Assembly: GCA_947085295.1 (NCBI GenBank)
Contig: CAMTVX010000044.1
Span: 3,269 to 67,268, forward strand
DNA from: an uncultured Alphaproteobacteria bacterium
GTDB lineage: Bacteria > Pseudomonadota > Alphaproteobacteria > UBA11222
Reading direction: 5' to 3'
DNA: 64,000 nucleotides
Shown here: one piece after another, positions 4,877 through 22,698 of the stretch
Layout: the number at the start of each line of letters is the position of its first letter
Position numbering within the stretch: the stretch's first letter is position 1
Notes under the pieces: generated by a model
What the model was told of the DNA's origin: nothing
The model's database searches: none
What the model saw: only the letters and a program-made list of their open reading frames with translations
Translations under genes and position numbers: made by a program

Positions 4877-7800
4877 CTACACTGCGGGGGATGATTGGCC
4901 AGAATGGTTACCAGACGGTAAATTTGTTCCGCCCGCAGCTTTTGCCGGTCTTAACAGGATGGTCAGGCACAGAATATAGAACATCAGAACAAGGCGCGGC
5001 TGATCGAACGTGCTTACCGTCATCCCCGTTATCAGAAAGCCTGTCAGGGACGCCAGCAGCACCGCCGCAAGCCTGTCTCCCGCTGCAATCTGACGCGCCA
5101 GCGCCGCAAGTGTAAGCGCCAATAAGGCCCCCACCGCCAGCAATCCCAGCCACCCCTGATCGATCAACAGGCCCACGGCCAGATTTTTTGTGTGCCAGAA
5201 CAAATGTGCGTCTGACGTCCAGAACCAGTGATCGGAAAGCCGGTCAAACTCGCCATTCGCAACGAGATTGATTTCATTTTCTTTCGTAATACTGATTGCG
5301 TCGATATCAACGCCATGCAGGGGCGCGTTATTAACCCAAAACGATAATCTGGTTGGGCGGGGAAAAACCAGGCCAGAGACAGACCCGGCATACCCAATTT
5401 CACCGGTCTTTATTATCCCCCTGTAAGTTTGCCACCCCTCCCCATTCTCCTGAACCTGAAATATAGCATAGGTGCAATTATACGAGCTAATCAGCCATTT
5501 ATCACATAATGCAACTGTCAGGGAGGCGTTTGGCTCGGATGTGCGAAGTCTGACGCTCACTTGATAGGTGTTATCCGCATCGATGTGGATTGCCTGCCCC
5601 ATATACTGGGGCAGGCCGGACCACATCCGCATGAAACCATCATCCCCGTCACGGATAAAATCTGTGCGGGATGACCGCAGCTCAATTGTCCTGCTTTCTT
5701 GGCTAAGTCGTGGAAAACTGCCAAGGCCCATGCCTAAAAATTTTGTGGCAAGGGTATCGTCGCGCATGCTCAATGCGGCGCGCCAATGATTATACCGGGT
5801 TTCAGCGTCCGGCATGGTCCCCTCAAATCTTTCTCCCATATAGGTCCGGGAAAGCATGGGCAGGCCCACCATCGAAATCAGAACAACAGCACCTGATCCC
5901 AAAGCGACGGTAATAAATCCACGACGCCAGCCCGGGCGGCTCGCCAACAGCCCCAGCATGCCTACGCCAAAAGCAATCACTACCGCGATGAGGGGGCCGC
6001 GAGAGGCCGTGGCCATCAAAGTGTAGAATGATAGTAGCCCCATGCCTATGGTAACCGGCAATAGCGCCCACCAGCGGCGATCAAGCAATAACATAGCCAG
6101 CAGCGGCATGGTTGTCGCCAGCCATACATCGATGGGACCATCTCCGGTATGCAAGCTGGAAAATGTTGCAGCGATCCGGTGGTCAGAATTCCATTCAAAC
6201 AATCCCGCAAAAATCCAGTGTTCGTACACCCCAACCACGCTGACACCAAAAAGGCCCAGCAAAAGACCCCGCAACAACAGGTGCGTGGCGTCGCTGTCCT
6301 GTGCGATGGCGCGCCTTAGCGGGTTGAACAGCAGCAGCGCCCACACAAACCCCTTGCCGACCCGCAAGCTGTTATAGGGGCTAAAATAGTCAGCAAATGA
6401 ATTGGGCGTTATGGGCGGCGGCGGCCAAAGCTGTAACAGTGTGCTGAGCAGGTATGACACGGCCAGAAGCGTCAAAACCAGTTTCAGGTTTCTCGAAAGC
6501 GGCGGCAGCGGCTCTGCGCCGTTTTCACGCAGCGCAAGAACGCCCGCTGTTAACAGAACAAGGGCGTCAAATTCATCAAAGAAAAACCGGCCTGACCAGG
6601 GCGCAAGATCAAAGACCGGCAACATTGCAGGTACTATAATCAGCCAGAGTCCCGGCCGACGCCACAGGAAAATGGCGTACAGTGTAAAAGCCGCCGCTAT
6701 AGGCAGGCGCAGGACCGGAAAATCCACCACGAACCAGATAGTGATCGCCAGTAAAGACAATACGTAGGGAATCCGCGCGCGCCGCTGCGTCACAAAATGC
6801 ATTGCAGACTGAGCGTTGATTTTAGCGAAAGGCCTGTCTTGCGGCGCAGCTTCTACATTGCTTTCCGGTATTGACAAATCTGAGCCTAGCCGGACCGCCC
6901 ACTCACAGATGCGCTGCGTCAACGTCACCGCCGCGACGGCTATCAGGATATTGGTAAGATCTGGCCGCAGTCCCGTAGTGATGAGGCCCCCTGCTTCTAT
7001 TATGCCTGCAAATATGATTGCCCAAAATGCGCTATATATCAGGGGCCGTCTTTCTCCCGGCGCATTGCCATTAAGTGACTGGATAGCCCAGATGAAAACA
7101 CCCAACGGCGCATAGCTGACAGCAATGCTCATCAGGCTGGAAAAGGCTTCTTGTTCAGTCGTGAAATAATAGTAATAGAAAGGCATCCAGTGCATGGATG
7201 CGAGTACGTCTTCGATTTTGCCTTGCCCCGCGAAACCGGCATGCCACCCCCGCAAAACCGGCAGTATCGCCAGATAGAGTGGCGCAGCAAGCCAGATACC
7301 GGCCTTCAGCCAGGGGGTGAGGCGTAGCATGATCCTGGGTAGCAAATCTGTAATCTGGTGACCAAGCGCTGCGCCAAGCATCGCAACAGCAAAACTGCTG
7401 GCTTCCACGCGCCCCGAATACTGAAGCCATTGCAGCGCTTCGATCCCGCAGGTAAGCGCAAAGGCCGCCAGAACCGCCGAGGAAACACTGCGATTCCAGA
7501 TCAACCTAATCGCCATACCCAGCGGGAGTATGAGCGCAATTTGCAAAATCAGCGACGCCAGGCCGCGGATGCCGAATAAATTCTCCGGCGCCCATACGAA
7601 CGCCTTCGGGTCGGCCAACCGCGTTGCAATTTCATCCGCACTGACCAGAAAATCAAACGGGAACAGCGCAATAAAAATGTACCCCAGCAGATAAAGTCCA
7701 AGCGCTGCGGTTAATGTTTTGGGACCCCCGGACAGGGCATTGCGTATCGCTGTTACAATCTGCCTGCCCCACAACGCCCAGCCAAGGATACCGATACCGG

Positions 7801-9679: not shown

Positions 9680-10180
9680 TCACGCACGATGATAGGGATG
9701 ATTGGCCAGAATGCTTACCGCACGGTAAATTTGTTCCGCCAGCATCATGCGCACCAGCATATGCGGCCAGGTCATTGCCCCCAGCGATAGTTGCATATGC
9801 GCGCGGGCCGTTACCTGATCGCTTAACCCGTCCGCGCCCCCGATGACGAATACAAGATTGCGGCCGCCCTGATCCTTGTGTTGCCCCAGCCATTCTGCGA
9901 ATTTCTCACTGGATAGCGCGCGGCCCCGGCCGTCCAGCGCCACCAGCGTTGCACCTTCCGGCACCTGGGCCAGCAGCAGTTCGCCCTCACGCACCTTGCG
10001 CTGGGTGGCATCGGTCTGGGCGCTGCGCCTGCTGCGGTCTTCGACCTCGCGCAGCACCATCGGGCCAAACCCAAGGCGGGCGCCCATCAATTCTGCATTT
10101 TTCAGATAGCTGTTGGCAGCGGCCGTTTCATCGGCGGCGGCTTTCTGCCCCCGGCCAACAGCCGCAATCGTGATGCGCAT
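9680..10180 (-). CDS. rlmH: 23S rRNA pseudouridine-1915 N3-methyltransferase
   Basis: LDGRGRALSSEKFA, FVIGGADGL, LSLGAMTWPHMLVRMMLAEQIYRA..ILANHPYHR signature; follows rsfS. Confidence 0.95.
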   Translation of the reverse strand: MRITIAAVGRGQKAAADETAAANSYLKNAELMGARLGFGPMVLREVEDRSRRSAQTDATQRKVREGELLLAQVPEGATLVALDGRGRALSSEKFAEWLGQHKDQGGRNLVFVIGGADGLSDQVTARAHMQLSLGAMTWPHMLVRMMLAEQIYRAVSILANHPYHRA

Positions 10181-19829: not shown

Positions 19830-20606
19830 CTATTCATGCCTGAATTTCGCCGGGCGTTTTTCCACGAACGCTGCCATGCCTTCGCTTTGGTCTTTTGTGG
19901 CGAATTGCGAATGGAACAAACGCCGCTCAAATCGCACCCCTTCGCTTAAGCTCACCTCATAGGCGCGGTTGATGGATTCCTTGGTCATCATGGCGATGGG
20001 CAGGGATTTCTCGGCGATGACGGCGGCGACTTTCAATGCCTCGTTTACCAGATCGGCGGCCGGAATAATGCGGCTGACCAGCCCGGCGCGTTCAGCCTCG
20101 ACCGCATCCATCATGCGCCCGGTCAGGCACATTTCCATGGCTTTGGATTTGCCGACAAAGCGGGTCAGGCGTTGCGTGCCGCCTGCGCCCGGCATGACGC
20201 CCAGATTGATTTCCGGCTGGCCGAATTTGGCGGTGTCGGCGGCCAGAATGAAATCACACATCATCGCCAGCTCACAGCCGCCGCCCAGCGCAAAGCCCGC
20301 AACAGCGGCAATCACCGGCTTGCGGGCGCGCGATGCGCGTTCCCAATTGGATGTGATGAAATCTTCCATGAACACGCCCATATAGGTTTTGGGCTGCATT
20401 TCCTTGATGTCCGCACCCGCAGCAAAGGCGCGCTCGCTGCCGGTGATGACCATGCAGCCAATACCGTTATCGGCCTCGAACGCGTCAATCGCCTGGGTCA
20501 GTTCATCCATCAGCGCCTTGCACAGCGCGTTCAGCGCGGCCGGCCGGTTCAGCCGGATCAGCCCGACGCGGCCATGGGTTTCGACGATGATATTTTCATA
20601 TGCCAT
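19830..20606 (-). CDS. Enoyl-CoA hydratase
   Basis: [43 protein letters not shown]; canonical neighbour of mutM. Confidence 0.95.
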
Positions 20607-20649
20607 GCGGATGCTCCTGTTTTGTTTAATGCTGTATAGCACGAAACTT

Positions 20650-20701
20650 TCAGCGCTGACAGCCGGGGCAGTATGAGATGAAATTCATCCAATTGCAGAA
20701 T
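20650..20701 (-). repeat. Relic copy of the mutM 3' end (attR-like), counterpart of 21379-21429
   Basis: Minus strand TTC ATC TCA TAC TGC CCC GGC TGT CAG CGC TGA = [10 protein letters not shown] vs mut[11 protein letters not shown]. 21/31 nt identical over 20650-20680 vs 21379-21409, plus ATTGCAGAAT (20692) vs ATTGCACAAT (21420) at 9/10. Confidence 0.8.
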
Positions 20702-21086
20702 CACGGATCACATTTTCCCGCAAAAAACCAATCAACCCCGTTTCATCCAATGTGCCCGCTGCAAGGTTCAGTATTGCCTGTGCGGCGTTTTCTTCGCTGG
20801 CGGTAAAGCGCAAGCCGTTCAGTTCCAAAAACAAAACGCCCACCACAAAGCCGGTGCGTTTATTGCCATCGACAAAGGGGTGATTGCGCACAATGCCCGC
20901 AATATAGGCGGCGGCCAGATCAATCCTGTCGGCGGTTTCAGCGTAAGCAAATATCTGCTGTGGCCGGGCGAGTGCGGATTTCAGCAATCCCCCATCGCGC
21001 AATCCCACCGCGCCGCCAAACACTGCGAGCAGCCGGTCATGCAACGCCAGCGCGTCGCATTCCTCAATCCAGACCGGCGCGCTCAT
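20685..21086 (-). CDS. Death-on-curing (Doc/Fic) toxin
   Basis: G.RDGGLLKSALARP, HPFVDGNKRTG Doc motif. Confidence 0.92.
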   Translation of the reverse strand: MSAPVWIEECDALALHDRLLAVFGGAVGLRDGGLLKSALARPQQIFAYAETADRIDLAAAYIAGIVRNHPFVDGNKRTGFVVGVLFLELNGLRFTASEENAAQAILNLAAGTLDETGLIGFLRENVIRDSAIG

Positions 21087-21310
21087 TTGGCCAGGGTATG
21101 CAGCGTGTTGCGATAGCGATCAATAATGTCTTCGGCCTTTGCCATTTTCTGCTCGAACGCCGGATCATAGGGGGTCAGCCGGTAGGTTCCATCCGCCGCC
21201 TCGATCAGGAACAGCGGCGCACCGTCTTTGGTGTGCAGCCGGTTGATAACTTCCCTGGGCAGCACGACGCCCAGCGAGTTGCCGAATTTGCGAACCTTGA
21301 GCTCAATCAT
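21083..21310 (-). CDS. AbrB/MazE-family antitoxin
   Basis: LKVRKFGNSLGVVLPREVI swapped-hairpin signature; ATGA overlap with doc. Confidence 0.9.
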   Translation of the reverse strand: MIELKVRKFGNSLGVVLPREVINRLHTKDGAPLFLIEAADGTYRLTPYDPAFEQKMAKAEDIIDRYRNTLHTLAK

Positions 21311-21325
21311 GACGCCTCTCCCATT

Positions 21326-21349
21326 ACGTTATCACCAATGTAATAACAT
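21326..21349. promoter_or_regulatory. Palindromic operator upstream of the antitoxin (autoregulation)
   Basis: ACGTTATCAC-CAAT-GTAATAACAT, 8 of 10 arm positions complementary, directly upstream of the AbrB RBS. Confidence 0.55.
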
Positions 21350-21378
21350 TCGGGGTGGAATGCAAGAGAAACTGGCCC

Positions 21379-22191
21379 CTATCGCTGACAGGTGGCGCAG
21401 AAGAAGCTGGAGCGGCCGGATTGCACAATGCGGGTGATGGGTTTTTGGCAAGCCTTGCAGGGCTGCCCTTCGCGACCGTAAACATCAAAACCGTGCTGGA
21501 AATACCCCAGACTGCCATCGGCGGCGGCGTAATCGCGCAGGGTGGAGCCGCCCGCCGCAATGGCGTCCGTCAGCACTGCCCGAATGGCCTGCGATAATTT
21601 TTCCGCCCGTGCACCCTTTAGCGTACCGGCCAGACGGCGCGGCGACAGCCCGGCGCGAAACAGCGCCTCGCACACATAAATATTGCCAAGCCCGGCGATC
21701 AGGCGCTGATCGAGCAGCGCCGCCTTGAGAGGTGTGCGCCGCCCGGCAAACTTGTCCGCCAGATGCGCGCCGCTAAGTTCATTGCCCAATGGTTCAATGC
21801 CCAGACCAGACAGAAAACGGTTTTGCGCAAGCGCGTCCGGCGCGATCAGTTCCATAAACCCAAACCGACGCGGATCACTATACACCAGCCGCACACCGTC
21901 GCTAAGGTGAAGCACCACATGGTCATGCAGTTTGGGTTCAGGATCAAAACTATAGCGCCCGGTCATGCCCAGGTGTGAGAGCAGGACGCCGCCCCCCTCC
22001 AGCGCGATCAGCAGATATTTCGCCCGCCGGTCCACCCCCACAATGGTCTGCCCGGTGAGCGCGTGCGCAAAGCCATCGCCAAACGCAAACCGCAAATCCG
22101 GGCGGTTAAGATCAACCCGCAATATCCGCCGCCCGGTCAGGCGCGGCGCTAATCCCCGGCGGATGGTTTCAACTTCAGGTAATTCAGGCAT
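21379..22191 (-). CDS. mutM: Formamidopyrimidine-DNA glycosylase
   Basis: [41 protein letters not shown]-terminal zinc finger. Confidence 0.98.
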
Positions 22192-22274: not shown

Positions 22275-22487
22275 ATGGCGAAGAAACAAAAATTCTCGGC
22301 AAGCGTCTGGCGCGAAGGCAAATGGCATATCGCCCAGTGCCTCGAGGTCGATGTCGTCAGTCAGGGGACGAGTGAGTCGGCTGCGCTGAAAAACCTGGCT
22401 GACGCGCTGGCGCTGCACTTTAGTCCGCCGATGGCCACCCGGGCGCCGAGAGTGCTGCCGATAGAGGTTAAGGCGCGTGCCGCTTAA
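22275..22487 (+). CDS. HicB-family antitoxin (short, no DNA-binding domain)
   Basis: VWREGKWHIAQCLEVDVVSQGTSESAALKNLADALALH HicB-like fold; overlaps the hicA start. Confidence 0.8.
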   Translation: MAKKQKFSASVWREGKWHIAQCLEVDVVSQGTSESAALKNLADALALHFSPPMATRAPRVLPIEVKARAA

Positions 22488-22698
22488 AAGCCTGCCGTTC
22501 CGGGAAATCCGGCGAAGGTTATTAGCAGCGGGATGGACCGAGGCCGGACAGACCGGCAGTCACGTAAAATTCGCCCGGCGTGTTGGGAATGGTTTACGCA
22601 CCACCATTGTACCCAAACATCGTGAAGTAGCGCTTGGCACACTACGTGGCATTCTGCGGCAGGCCTGAATCAGCCCCGACGATTTTGAACGGCTGTAA
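22477..22698 (+). pseudogene. HicA-family toxin with an in-frame TGA at 22666-22668
   Basis: GWTEAGQTGSHVKF...VPKHREVALGTLRGILRQA*ISPDDFERL*; the frame continues in HicA-like fashion to TAA 22696-22698. Confidence 0.78.

Follow-up and report, generated by a model that had tools for sequence, protein, structure and literature searches.

A small toxin–antitoxin (TA) cassette sits in the last codons of mutM, the formamidopyrimidine-DNA glycosylase gene, in the 64,000-nucleotide stretch of contig CAMTVX010000044.1 analysed here (the window), which comes from an uncultured alphaproteobacterium. It encodes an AbrB/MazE-type antitoxin and a Doc toxin, and beyond it lies a displaced copy of the mutM end (the relic). 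We consider it likely that an AbrB/MazE–Doc cassette entered the terminal codons of mutM in a single insertion event, that the gene end was duplicated, that the downstream copy has been held in place by a promoter function, and that the locus was then inherited vertically with subsequent losses. The locus is arranged as follows.

21379-22191, minus strand: mutM (formamidopyrimidine-DNA glycosylase), 270 aa, intact, with the end FFCATCQR and then TAG

21379-21402, minus strand: working (upstream) copy of the repeat, TTC TGC GCC ACC TGT CAG CGA TAG, at the mutM end

21328-21378, minus strand: control region of the cassette, with a 13-nt left junction, a -35 TTGCAT (21360-21365) and an operator over the -10

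21083-21310, minus strand: antitoxin of the AbrB/MazE (SpoVT) type, 75 aa, overlapping doc by 4 nt (ATGA)

20685-21086, minus strand: Doc (death-on-curing, Fic fold) toxin, 133 aa, catalytic motif HPFVDGNKR intact

20650-20673, minus strand: relic of the original mutM end, TAC TGC CCC GGC TGT CAG CGC TGA (YCPGCQR and stop), with no gene attached

19830-20606, minus strand: enoyl-CoA hydratase (ECH; ECH_1, E = 3e-79), the normal downstream neighbour of mutM

The MutM protein has the same length as its relatives (270 aa) and matches the Pfam and NCBIfam profiles for the Fapy_DNA_glyco, H2TH and zf-FPG_IleRS domains. The features that define MutM/Fpg are present, namely the N-terminal PELPEVE, the H2TH and a C-terminal four-cysteine CxxC...CxxC zinc finger that is intact despite the insertion; the working copy supplies the last two cysteine codons of this finger and the stop. 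The cassette is about 730 bp long and has its own promoter and operator. Its -35 begins 13 bases past the mutM stop, and the operator is an inverted repeat, GTTATTAC-attg-GTGATAAC, at 21328-21347, overlying the -10. The antitoxin scored 26.1 bits against PF04014 (above the cut-off of 24.7) and 48.5 bits against TIGR02609, doc_partner (below the cut-off of 55.9). Doc was matched by PF02661 (E = 6e-20) and by TIGR01550 (DOC_P1; 65.1 bits, cut-off 38.65), and its HPFVDGNKR agrees with the motif HxFx(D/N)(A/G)NKR. Within the Doc/AbrB-partner group the pair is unremarkable, and it may be active. An Rfam scan of the region gave no match.

The two mutM-type ends lie 729 nt apart and were returned by a repeat search as a direct repeat of 27 nt at 74% identity. 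The relic starts 11 bases past the Doc stop and is followed by a 43-nt spacer to the ECH start. A preliminary description of this DNA had picked out a second MutM-type CxxCQR terminus without a gene, 729 bp downstream of the mutM end, and had proposed that the TA module was inserted in the 3' terminal codons of mutM, leaving a zinc-finger relic; both claims are borne out by comparison with relatives. Our sample comprised 17 loci including the window, all from metagenome assemblies of an uncultured alphaproteobacterial clade. The relatives were MutM matches at 74-92% identity from a large protein collection, all of 270 aa, together with metagenome contigs matched by alignment of Doc. Twenty-two nucleotides of the relic, CTGCCCCGGCTGTCAGCGCTGA, are identical (22/22) to the true 3' end of mutM in L084, which has no cassette, and the relic agrees with the mutM end of the cassette-less L164 at 23/24 positions, including the Tyr codon. 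Downstream of the relic, the intergenic sequence (aagtttcatgcta...) and ECH are colinear with those of the empty relatives. A chance match is ruled out, since relatives without the cassette share both the relic sequence and this colinear flank. An assembly artefact is ruled out as well: each junction of the window lies within one error-free contig from public runs, and the same architecture was found in seven other assemblies (L081, L086, L089, L091-L094). The relic is present in all seven (L081, L086, L089, L091, L092, L093 and L094) and also in L161 and L163; a search of the 64-kb window for further copies of the motif gave nothing meaningful, and none that flanks anything. We therefore take the displaced copy of the mutM end to be genuine, with 24 nt demonstrably derived from mutM.

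The 16 relatives display the site in several states: seven carry the cassette and the relic, five are empty, one is a scar, one holds a RES–Xre pair and two are rearranged. In all eight occupied loci (the window, L081, L086, L089 and L091-L094) only abrB and doc lie between the repeats, and the junctions are tight (left, 13-24 nt; right, 11-20 nt). In the empty loci (L084, L087, L088, L090 and L164) mutM runs directly into ECH, the normal adjacency that the preliminary description had assumed. That assumption agrees with a set of 80 alphaproteobacterial loci, where the gap is about 10-135 nt in most loci with both genes. The description had also predicted that relatives without the TA pair would end like CPGCQR. 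Four of the five empty sites do end (F/Y)CPGCQR-TGA, with DNA nearly equal to the relic: they read (TTC/TAT) TGC CCC GGC TGT CA(G/A) CG(C/T) TGA, then aa(c/g)tttcatgcta..., and the fifth, L090, reads TGT CCA GCC TGT CAG CGG TGA (CPACQR). The stop codon separates the two classes, being TGA in every empty site, whereas the working copies of the occupied, scarred and replaced loci all have TAG or TAA. More distant MutM relatives (57% identity or less) were usable for synteny and too distant for junction comparison; they occasionally have inserts of 0.4-1.4 kb between mutM and ECH; these are ordinary genes, and neither a TA pair nor a relic is present.

The scar and the replacement are single loci. 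L161 (3200-3290) has no TA pair but keeps both repeat copies, 4 nt apart, as ...TGC CAG AGA TAG agtg CCTGTCAGCGCTGA aatttcatgc..., so that the relic follows the TAG in frame (CQR-stop-SACQR-stop). A relic that is present regardless of the TA module was what the preliminary description thought would speak against an insertion, and superficially L161 is such a case. It is nested inside the occupied clade, however, and is therefore best read as a deletion scar. In L163 (2859-4175) a RES toxin and an Xre/MbcA-ParS-type antitoxin occupy the mutM–ECH site. This pair comes with two copies of a palindromic operator of its own, TGCCATATGGC, and is flanked by a perfect 13-nt repeat, CCCCGGCTGTCAG. At its left end mutM reads CAG TGG TAG, one transition from the CGG TAG of L089, so that MutM ends CPGCQW and not CQR; the right flank, TTTTAATCTGAC, resembles the end of the variant-B Doc, TTCAATCTGAA, and a similar -35 stretch (AATTTCCTTGC) is present. 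The retained left end, the Doc-like right flank and the -35 stretch suggest that RES–Xre most likely replaced AbrB–Doc inside the old site and did not enter a virgin one. As a separate observation, the Doc of L086 (5117-5524) has its catalytic His changed to Tyr (RNYPFVDGNKR); this toxin has probably been inactivated and is heading for loss.

The identity of the cassette DNA tracks that of mutM in all 21 pairs of occupied loci (cassette/mutM 89.5%/88.7% for the window and L081, 82.0%/81.4% for the window and L086, and 82.0%/78.8% for the window and L089), and the right junction is common to all occupied variants. This co-divergence and the common junction argue for one old insertion, followed by losses and one replacement, rather than recent spread. 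A single clade of occupied loci is rejected on the mutM tree (approximately unbiased test, p = 0.0002; at least three state changes): the occupied L089 is sister to the empty L090, and the empty L088 falls within the clade that holds L086 and the group of the window. We infer repeated loss, as the simplest reading, and with it the direction of the changes. Loss could have come about by recombination between the two repeat copies, or by replacement with an empty allele. A search of public reads and contigs for the excised form gave nothing credible; the one 972-nt 'joint' has a side of 20 nt and is probably from another organism.

Conservation of the relic is uneven, and it coincides with a predicted promoter of the downstream gene.

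20633-20662, minus strand: predicted ECH promoter, with -35 CTGTCA (20657-20662, within the relic), an 18-nt spacer and a TG-extended -10 TATACA (20633-20638)

A promoter scan of the empty L084 called CTGTCA-18-TATAAT with an upstream TG (10/12 matches), its -35 lying in the mutM codons TGT CAG. In the occupied L093 the same scan called CTGTCA-18-TACAAT with TG (9/12), the -35 being inside the relic. The sequence CTGTCAGC is invariant in all relics. Between doc and ECH the occupied loci conserve three blocks, CTGTCAGC(G)CTGAAA, TTTCATGCTAYA and the ribosome-binding site AGGAGCATC, and vary in the remainder. The ends of empty sites have a mean pairwise identity of 89% over 21 nt, even though mutM of these lineages is 78-84% identical; the working copies of the occupied loci average 77% (minimum 57%), and for the last 13 nt of the relics the value is 93%. 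We suggest that the relic has probably been kept for its CTGTCA, which is predicted to serve as the -35 of the ECH promoter. The last mutM codons and stop, CAG CGC TGA, also form with the preceding T a perfect 10-bp palindrome, TCAGCGCTGA (20650-20659 in the window), which is conserved in the empty sites and in most relics and could be a regulator site instead of, or besides, part of the -35.

The anatomy of the locus, the series of present and absent cassettes, the co-divergence and the conservation pattern are direct observations. The history that we propose to connect them would run as follows. Originally one stretch would have had two roles, as the last codons of mutM and as the -35 of ECH, and it would for this reason have been unusually conserved in the empty sites. 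An insertion between mutM and ECH may have been tolerated only if it duplicated this dual-role stretch. A cassette of about 730 bp with its own promoter and operator would have entered the last codons of mutM once, in the ancestor of the group, leaving at least the terminal 24 nt of mutM as an imperfect direct repeat on either side. The upstream copy would finish MutM, with the second CxxC knuckle, QR and a new TAG or TAA stop, and the downstream copy would be noncoding. With one constraint left to each copy, coding upstream and promoter downstream, the coding copy could drift at synonymous positions and at the variable 'xx' of CxxC, while the relic would have retained CTGTCAGC and decayed elsewhere in some lineages. 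The cassette would then have been passed on vertically, with several clean losses, a deletion in L161 that left both repeats, and the RES–Xre swap in L163.

Several points weigh against this history. The sample of taxa amounts to 17 metagenome loci, the window among them. The ECH promoter is a consensus match only, and the scan of the window called none at the relic, where the TATACA -10 fails the scan's T6 rule. Finally, the apparent losses could instead be allele replacements by homologous recombination from lineages with empty sites; the ECH identities do reveal mosaicism in the region (for example 91.8% between the window and L089).

How far the relic reaches upstream of the 24-nt core is less clear. 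The preliminary description had included an ILQ/FIS stretch; the core stands, and the part upstream of it is suggestive only.

20674-20708, minus strand: possible extension of the relic, made up of the clade-specific Doc tail (IRDSAIG and stop) and the 11-nt spacer, resembling out-of-frame mutM ATC ACC CGC ATT GTG CAA

The stretch 'ATT CTG CAA ... TTC ATC TCA' overlaps the Doc tail. Homology of Doc to its wider family stops near residue 126, so that the last 7-10 residues are specific to the clade, and from the end of this homology to the core relic there are 38 nt, against 39 nt in mutM. CGT-G-ATTCTGCAAT in the window resembles CGC-ATTGTGCAAT in mutM. An anchored global alignment of the 48 nt upstream of the core with mutM gave p = 0.001-0.09 for the window, varying with the empty allele and the null, and p = 0.007-0.74 for the other cassette variants. 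The 'FIS' part is better read as a homologue of the variant-B Doc end AAT TCA ATC TGA. The chances are about evenly balanced that the relic is some 60 nt long and that the last codons of Doc are old mutM sequence read out of frame.

The preliminary description had gone further and held that the TA module arrived carrying a replacement zinc-finger knuckle. Insertion with a displaced end is supported; as the origin of the second copy, duplication in place with relaxed constraint fits as well as import does. An imported end, which we regard as possible and no better than tentative, would mean that the incoming DNA had the terminal codons of another mutM, foreign or allelic, in front of the TA pair and pushed the resident end downstream as it integrated by homologous recombination across this short sequence; the integration would have been of the Campbell type, from a circle, or a case of homology-facilitated illegitimate recombination. 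The working copy that is likely to be ancestral, CCA AAG TGC CAG AGA TAG, differs from the relic CCC GGC TGT CAG CGC TGA at 9/21 nt and in the stop, and the two major clades (L093/L086 and L160) both have this type. All AbrB–Doc loci have a TAG or TAA stop and K, R or T, not G, at xx, and the working copies differ from the empty-site consensus at 6-9/21 nt (window 6; the RES–Xre locus L163, 4). If the extended relic is real, the duplication comes to about 60 nt, a length more in keeping with recombination than with transposition; another insertion in the window is flanked by a 46-bp repeat of a gene 3' end; and homology-facilitated illegitimate recombination is documented for short linear DNA (PMC3240628). 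An import would, however, lead one to look for the donor. The preliminary description had suggested searching for abrB-doc homologues preceded by a mutM end elsewhere; this expectation failed, as none of about 60 other AbrB–Doc loci has mutM or a CxxCQR sequence at its flank or carries any mutM fragment, and no donor arrangement (mutM then the TA pair, with no relic) was found among the loci compared. The working copy of L089, moreover, equals the end of its sister L090 except for ACC/GCC, the synonymous TGC/TGT and CCT/CCA, and the stop, and the intermediates CGA and CGG and the native TGC CAG AGA of the outgroup L162 allow divergence in place.

Duplication in place, to which we assign the same tentative standing, would have copied the last 24 nt or more of the target through a staggered break or template switch, with the copies diverging after each lost one constraint. 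The conservation pattern (89% for empty ends, 77% for working copies and 93% for the last 13 nt of the relic) agrees with it, as do the stepwise codons CGC to CGA (window, L160) to AGA, the working copy of L163, which equals the empty-site sequence up to CAG, and the perfect 13-nt repeat CCCCGGCTGTCAG around the L163 cassette. A target duplication of 24-60 nt nevertheless exceeds known transposition footprints, and the ancestor would have had to acquire a new stop and three substitutions within a single codon, with none in the relic. At other loci of the family, flanking repeats of 9 nt or more were counted in 10/42 cases, against an estimated 8 or so expected by chance. Whichever way the second copy arose, gene conversion between the copies appears to have occurred, as the relic-type TGT CAG CGx is found in the working copy at three loci (the window, L089 and L163).

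Readings in which the site itself is mobile fare worse. The TA pair might be all that survives of a larger island that had an integrase and was attached at the mutM 3' end, with the repeats as attL and attR. Direct repeats at a gene 3' end with the reading frame preserved fit such an island, and so does the resistance of TA pairs to loss, with a different pair at the same site in L163. Yet every occupied locus contains nothing but the TA pair between tight junctions, L163 looks like a replacement within the old cassette and not a new integration, and no integrase was seen in the flanks fetched; we regard the island as quite unlikely. The idea that the mutM-end repeat with TCAGCGCTGA is an attachment-like site, at which promoter-bearing TA cassettes are inserted, excised or exchanged by a recombinase encoded elsewhere, is a slightly slimmer prospect. 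If true, it would be a minimal, integrase-detached cassette system and would explain how TA pairs move without mobility genes. Slimmest of all is its integron-like form, with the repeat as a recombination site for swapping small TA cassettes through a recombinase encoded elsewhere. In its favour are the four states of the site (AbrB–Doc, RES–Xre, empty and scar), scar endpoints within about 4 nt of both repeats and the perfect 10-bp palindrome TCAGCGCTGA at the mutM stop. Against it, neither a GTTRRRY-type core nor an attC-like fold is seen at the boundaries TAG/GGGCC and CATAC/TGCC, further copies of the motif flank nothing in the 64-kb window, the cassette family occurs elsewhere without such a flank, and one insertion with one in-place replacement explains the data. 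The hallmarks of integron cassettes (an attC with a GTTRRRY core, an adjacent intI/attI) were not seen at the boundaries, and no integrase was called in the flanks fetched. As for transposons, insertion sequences and miniature inverted-repeat transposable elements, no terminal inverted repeats were found, and the repeat is at least 24 nt against a target duplication of 2-14 bp.

The roughly 60 homologous AbrB–Doc loci, with 45-75% Doc identity, lie in very different contexts. The operator GTTATTAC-N4-GTGATAAC upstream of abrB is conserved in most of them (metagenome loci L095-L159), and homology with cassettes elsewhere starts at the -35. The nearest outside cassettes (L096-L098 and L100) encode an AbrB that is 86-89% identical to that of the window, but a Doc that is only 72-75% identical.

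Other cassettes were noticed near the locus and in the rest of the window. One of them lies on the other flank of mutM.

22275-22668, plus strand: second TA cassette, a HicB-like (DUF7387) and HicA toxin pair that lies on the other flank of mutM and is divergent from it

This flank is a hotspot for cassettes. The HicB-like/HicA pair is present in the window, L087 and L163, an MNT–HEPN pair (NTP_transf_2 and NTase_sub_bind) in L081, L089, L090 and L164, and a gene for a 929-aa MmeI-like methyltransferase/restriction protein in L084. On the mutM side every variant has its junction at a conserved GCGCTACAAC, some 15 nt upstream of the ATG; no duplication was seen at the HicAB and MNT–HEPN junctions upstream of mutM, which have just this boundary in common. 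In L089 (5441-6114) a FitA-like/PIN (VapBC) pair lies between the convergent ECH and hpaB; it is absent from L090 and the window, and no duplication was found at its junctions. Elsewhere in the window, a 4.7-kb gene lies between two copies of the rlmH 3' end (9695-9740 and 4888-4933), which form a direct repeat of 46 bp with 43/46 positions identical, and this appears to be a second insertion at a gene 3' end with target duplication in the same 64 kb.

How chromosomal TA pairs enter genomes without mobility genes is poorly understood. The close relatives studied here give a natural series of empty, occupied, scarred and replaced sites, which dates one insertion and makes plain that a supposed addictive effect does not prevent loss of the cassette. 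The locus also illustrates how a gene end that doubles as the -35 of the next gene may split into two single-purpose copies, and it is a useful, testable teaching case. What is known of MutM, Doc or TA biology is unchanged by it.

Phd–Doc of phage P1 is the prototype of Doc toxin systems. With the Doc/AbrB-partner pairs the cassette shares the Fic-fold motif HxFx(D/N)(A/G)NKR, the upstream antitoxin with a 4-nt overlap, the palindromic operator and the form of a widespread two-gene unit. Its antitoxin differs from Phd in having the AbrB/SpoVT fold, and the last 7-10 residues of Doc are clade-specific and perhaps former mutM sequence. Prophage e14 and phage 21 in icd, and the islands at tRNA 3' ends, restore the 3' end of their target and leave a displaced copy. 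The mutM locus resembles e14/icd in its flanking direct repeats, which include the 3' end of the target gene and restore its frame, in the displaced end downstream and in the empty sites of relatives. Unlike e14/icd, the insert is of 0.7 kb and holds the TA pair only, with no integrase or excisionase (none of the eight occupied loci has an integrase within the element); the repeat, of 24 nt or possibly about 60, has already diverged, and the relic seems to be kept for promoter function.

Chromosomal TA modules are acquired horizontally at fixed positions and then decay (PMC7167474, PMC3184786). The cassette resembles them in that the same position is occupied, empty or degenerate according to lineage, in the lack of mobility genes and in its decay (the His to Tyr change in the Doc of L086 and the scar in L161); it differs in that insertion inside a coding sequence with duplication of the gene end is not described in the literature compared (PMC7167474, PMC3184786). 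Homology-facilitated illegitimate recombination (PMC3240628) would give a donor gene end, foreign DNA and a leftover recipient end, and by this analogy it may be a plausible route. Overall the locus is a tidy but fairly ordinary gene-cassette insertion, set apart from the known systems by a site within coding sequence, a duplicated gene end, an apparent split of coding and promoter roles and an in-place swap of TA pairs.

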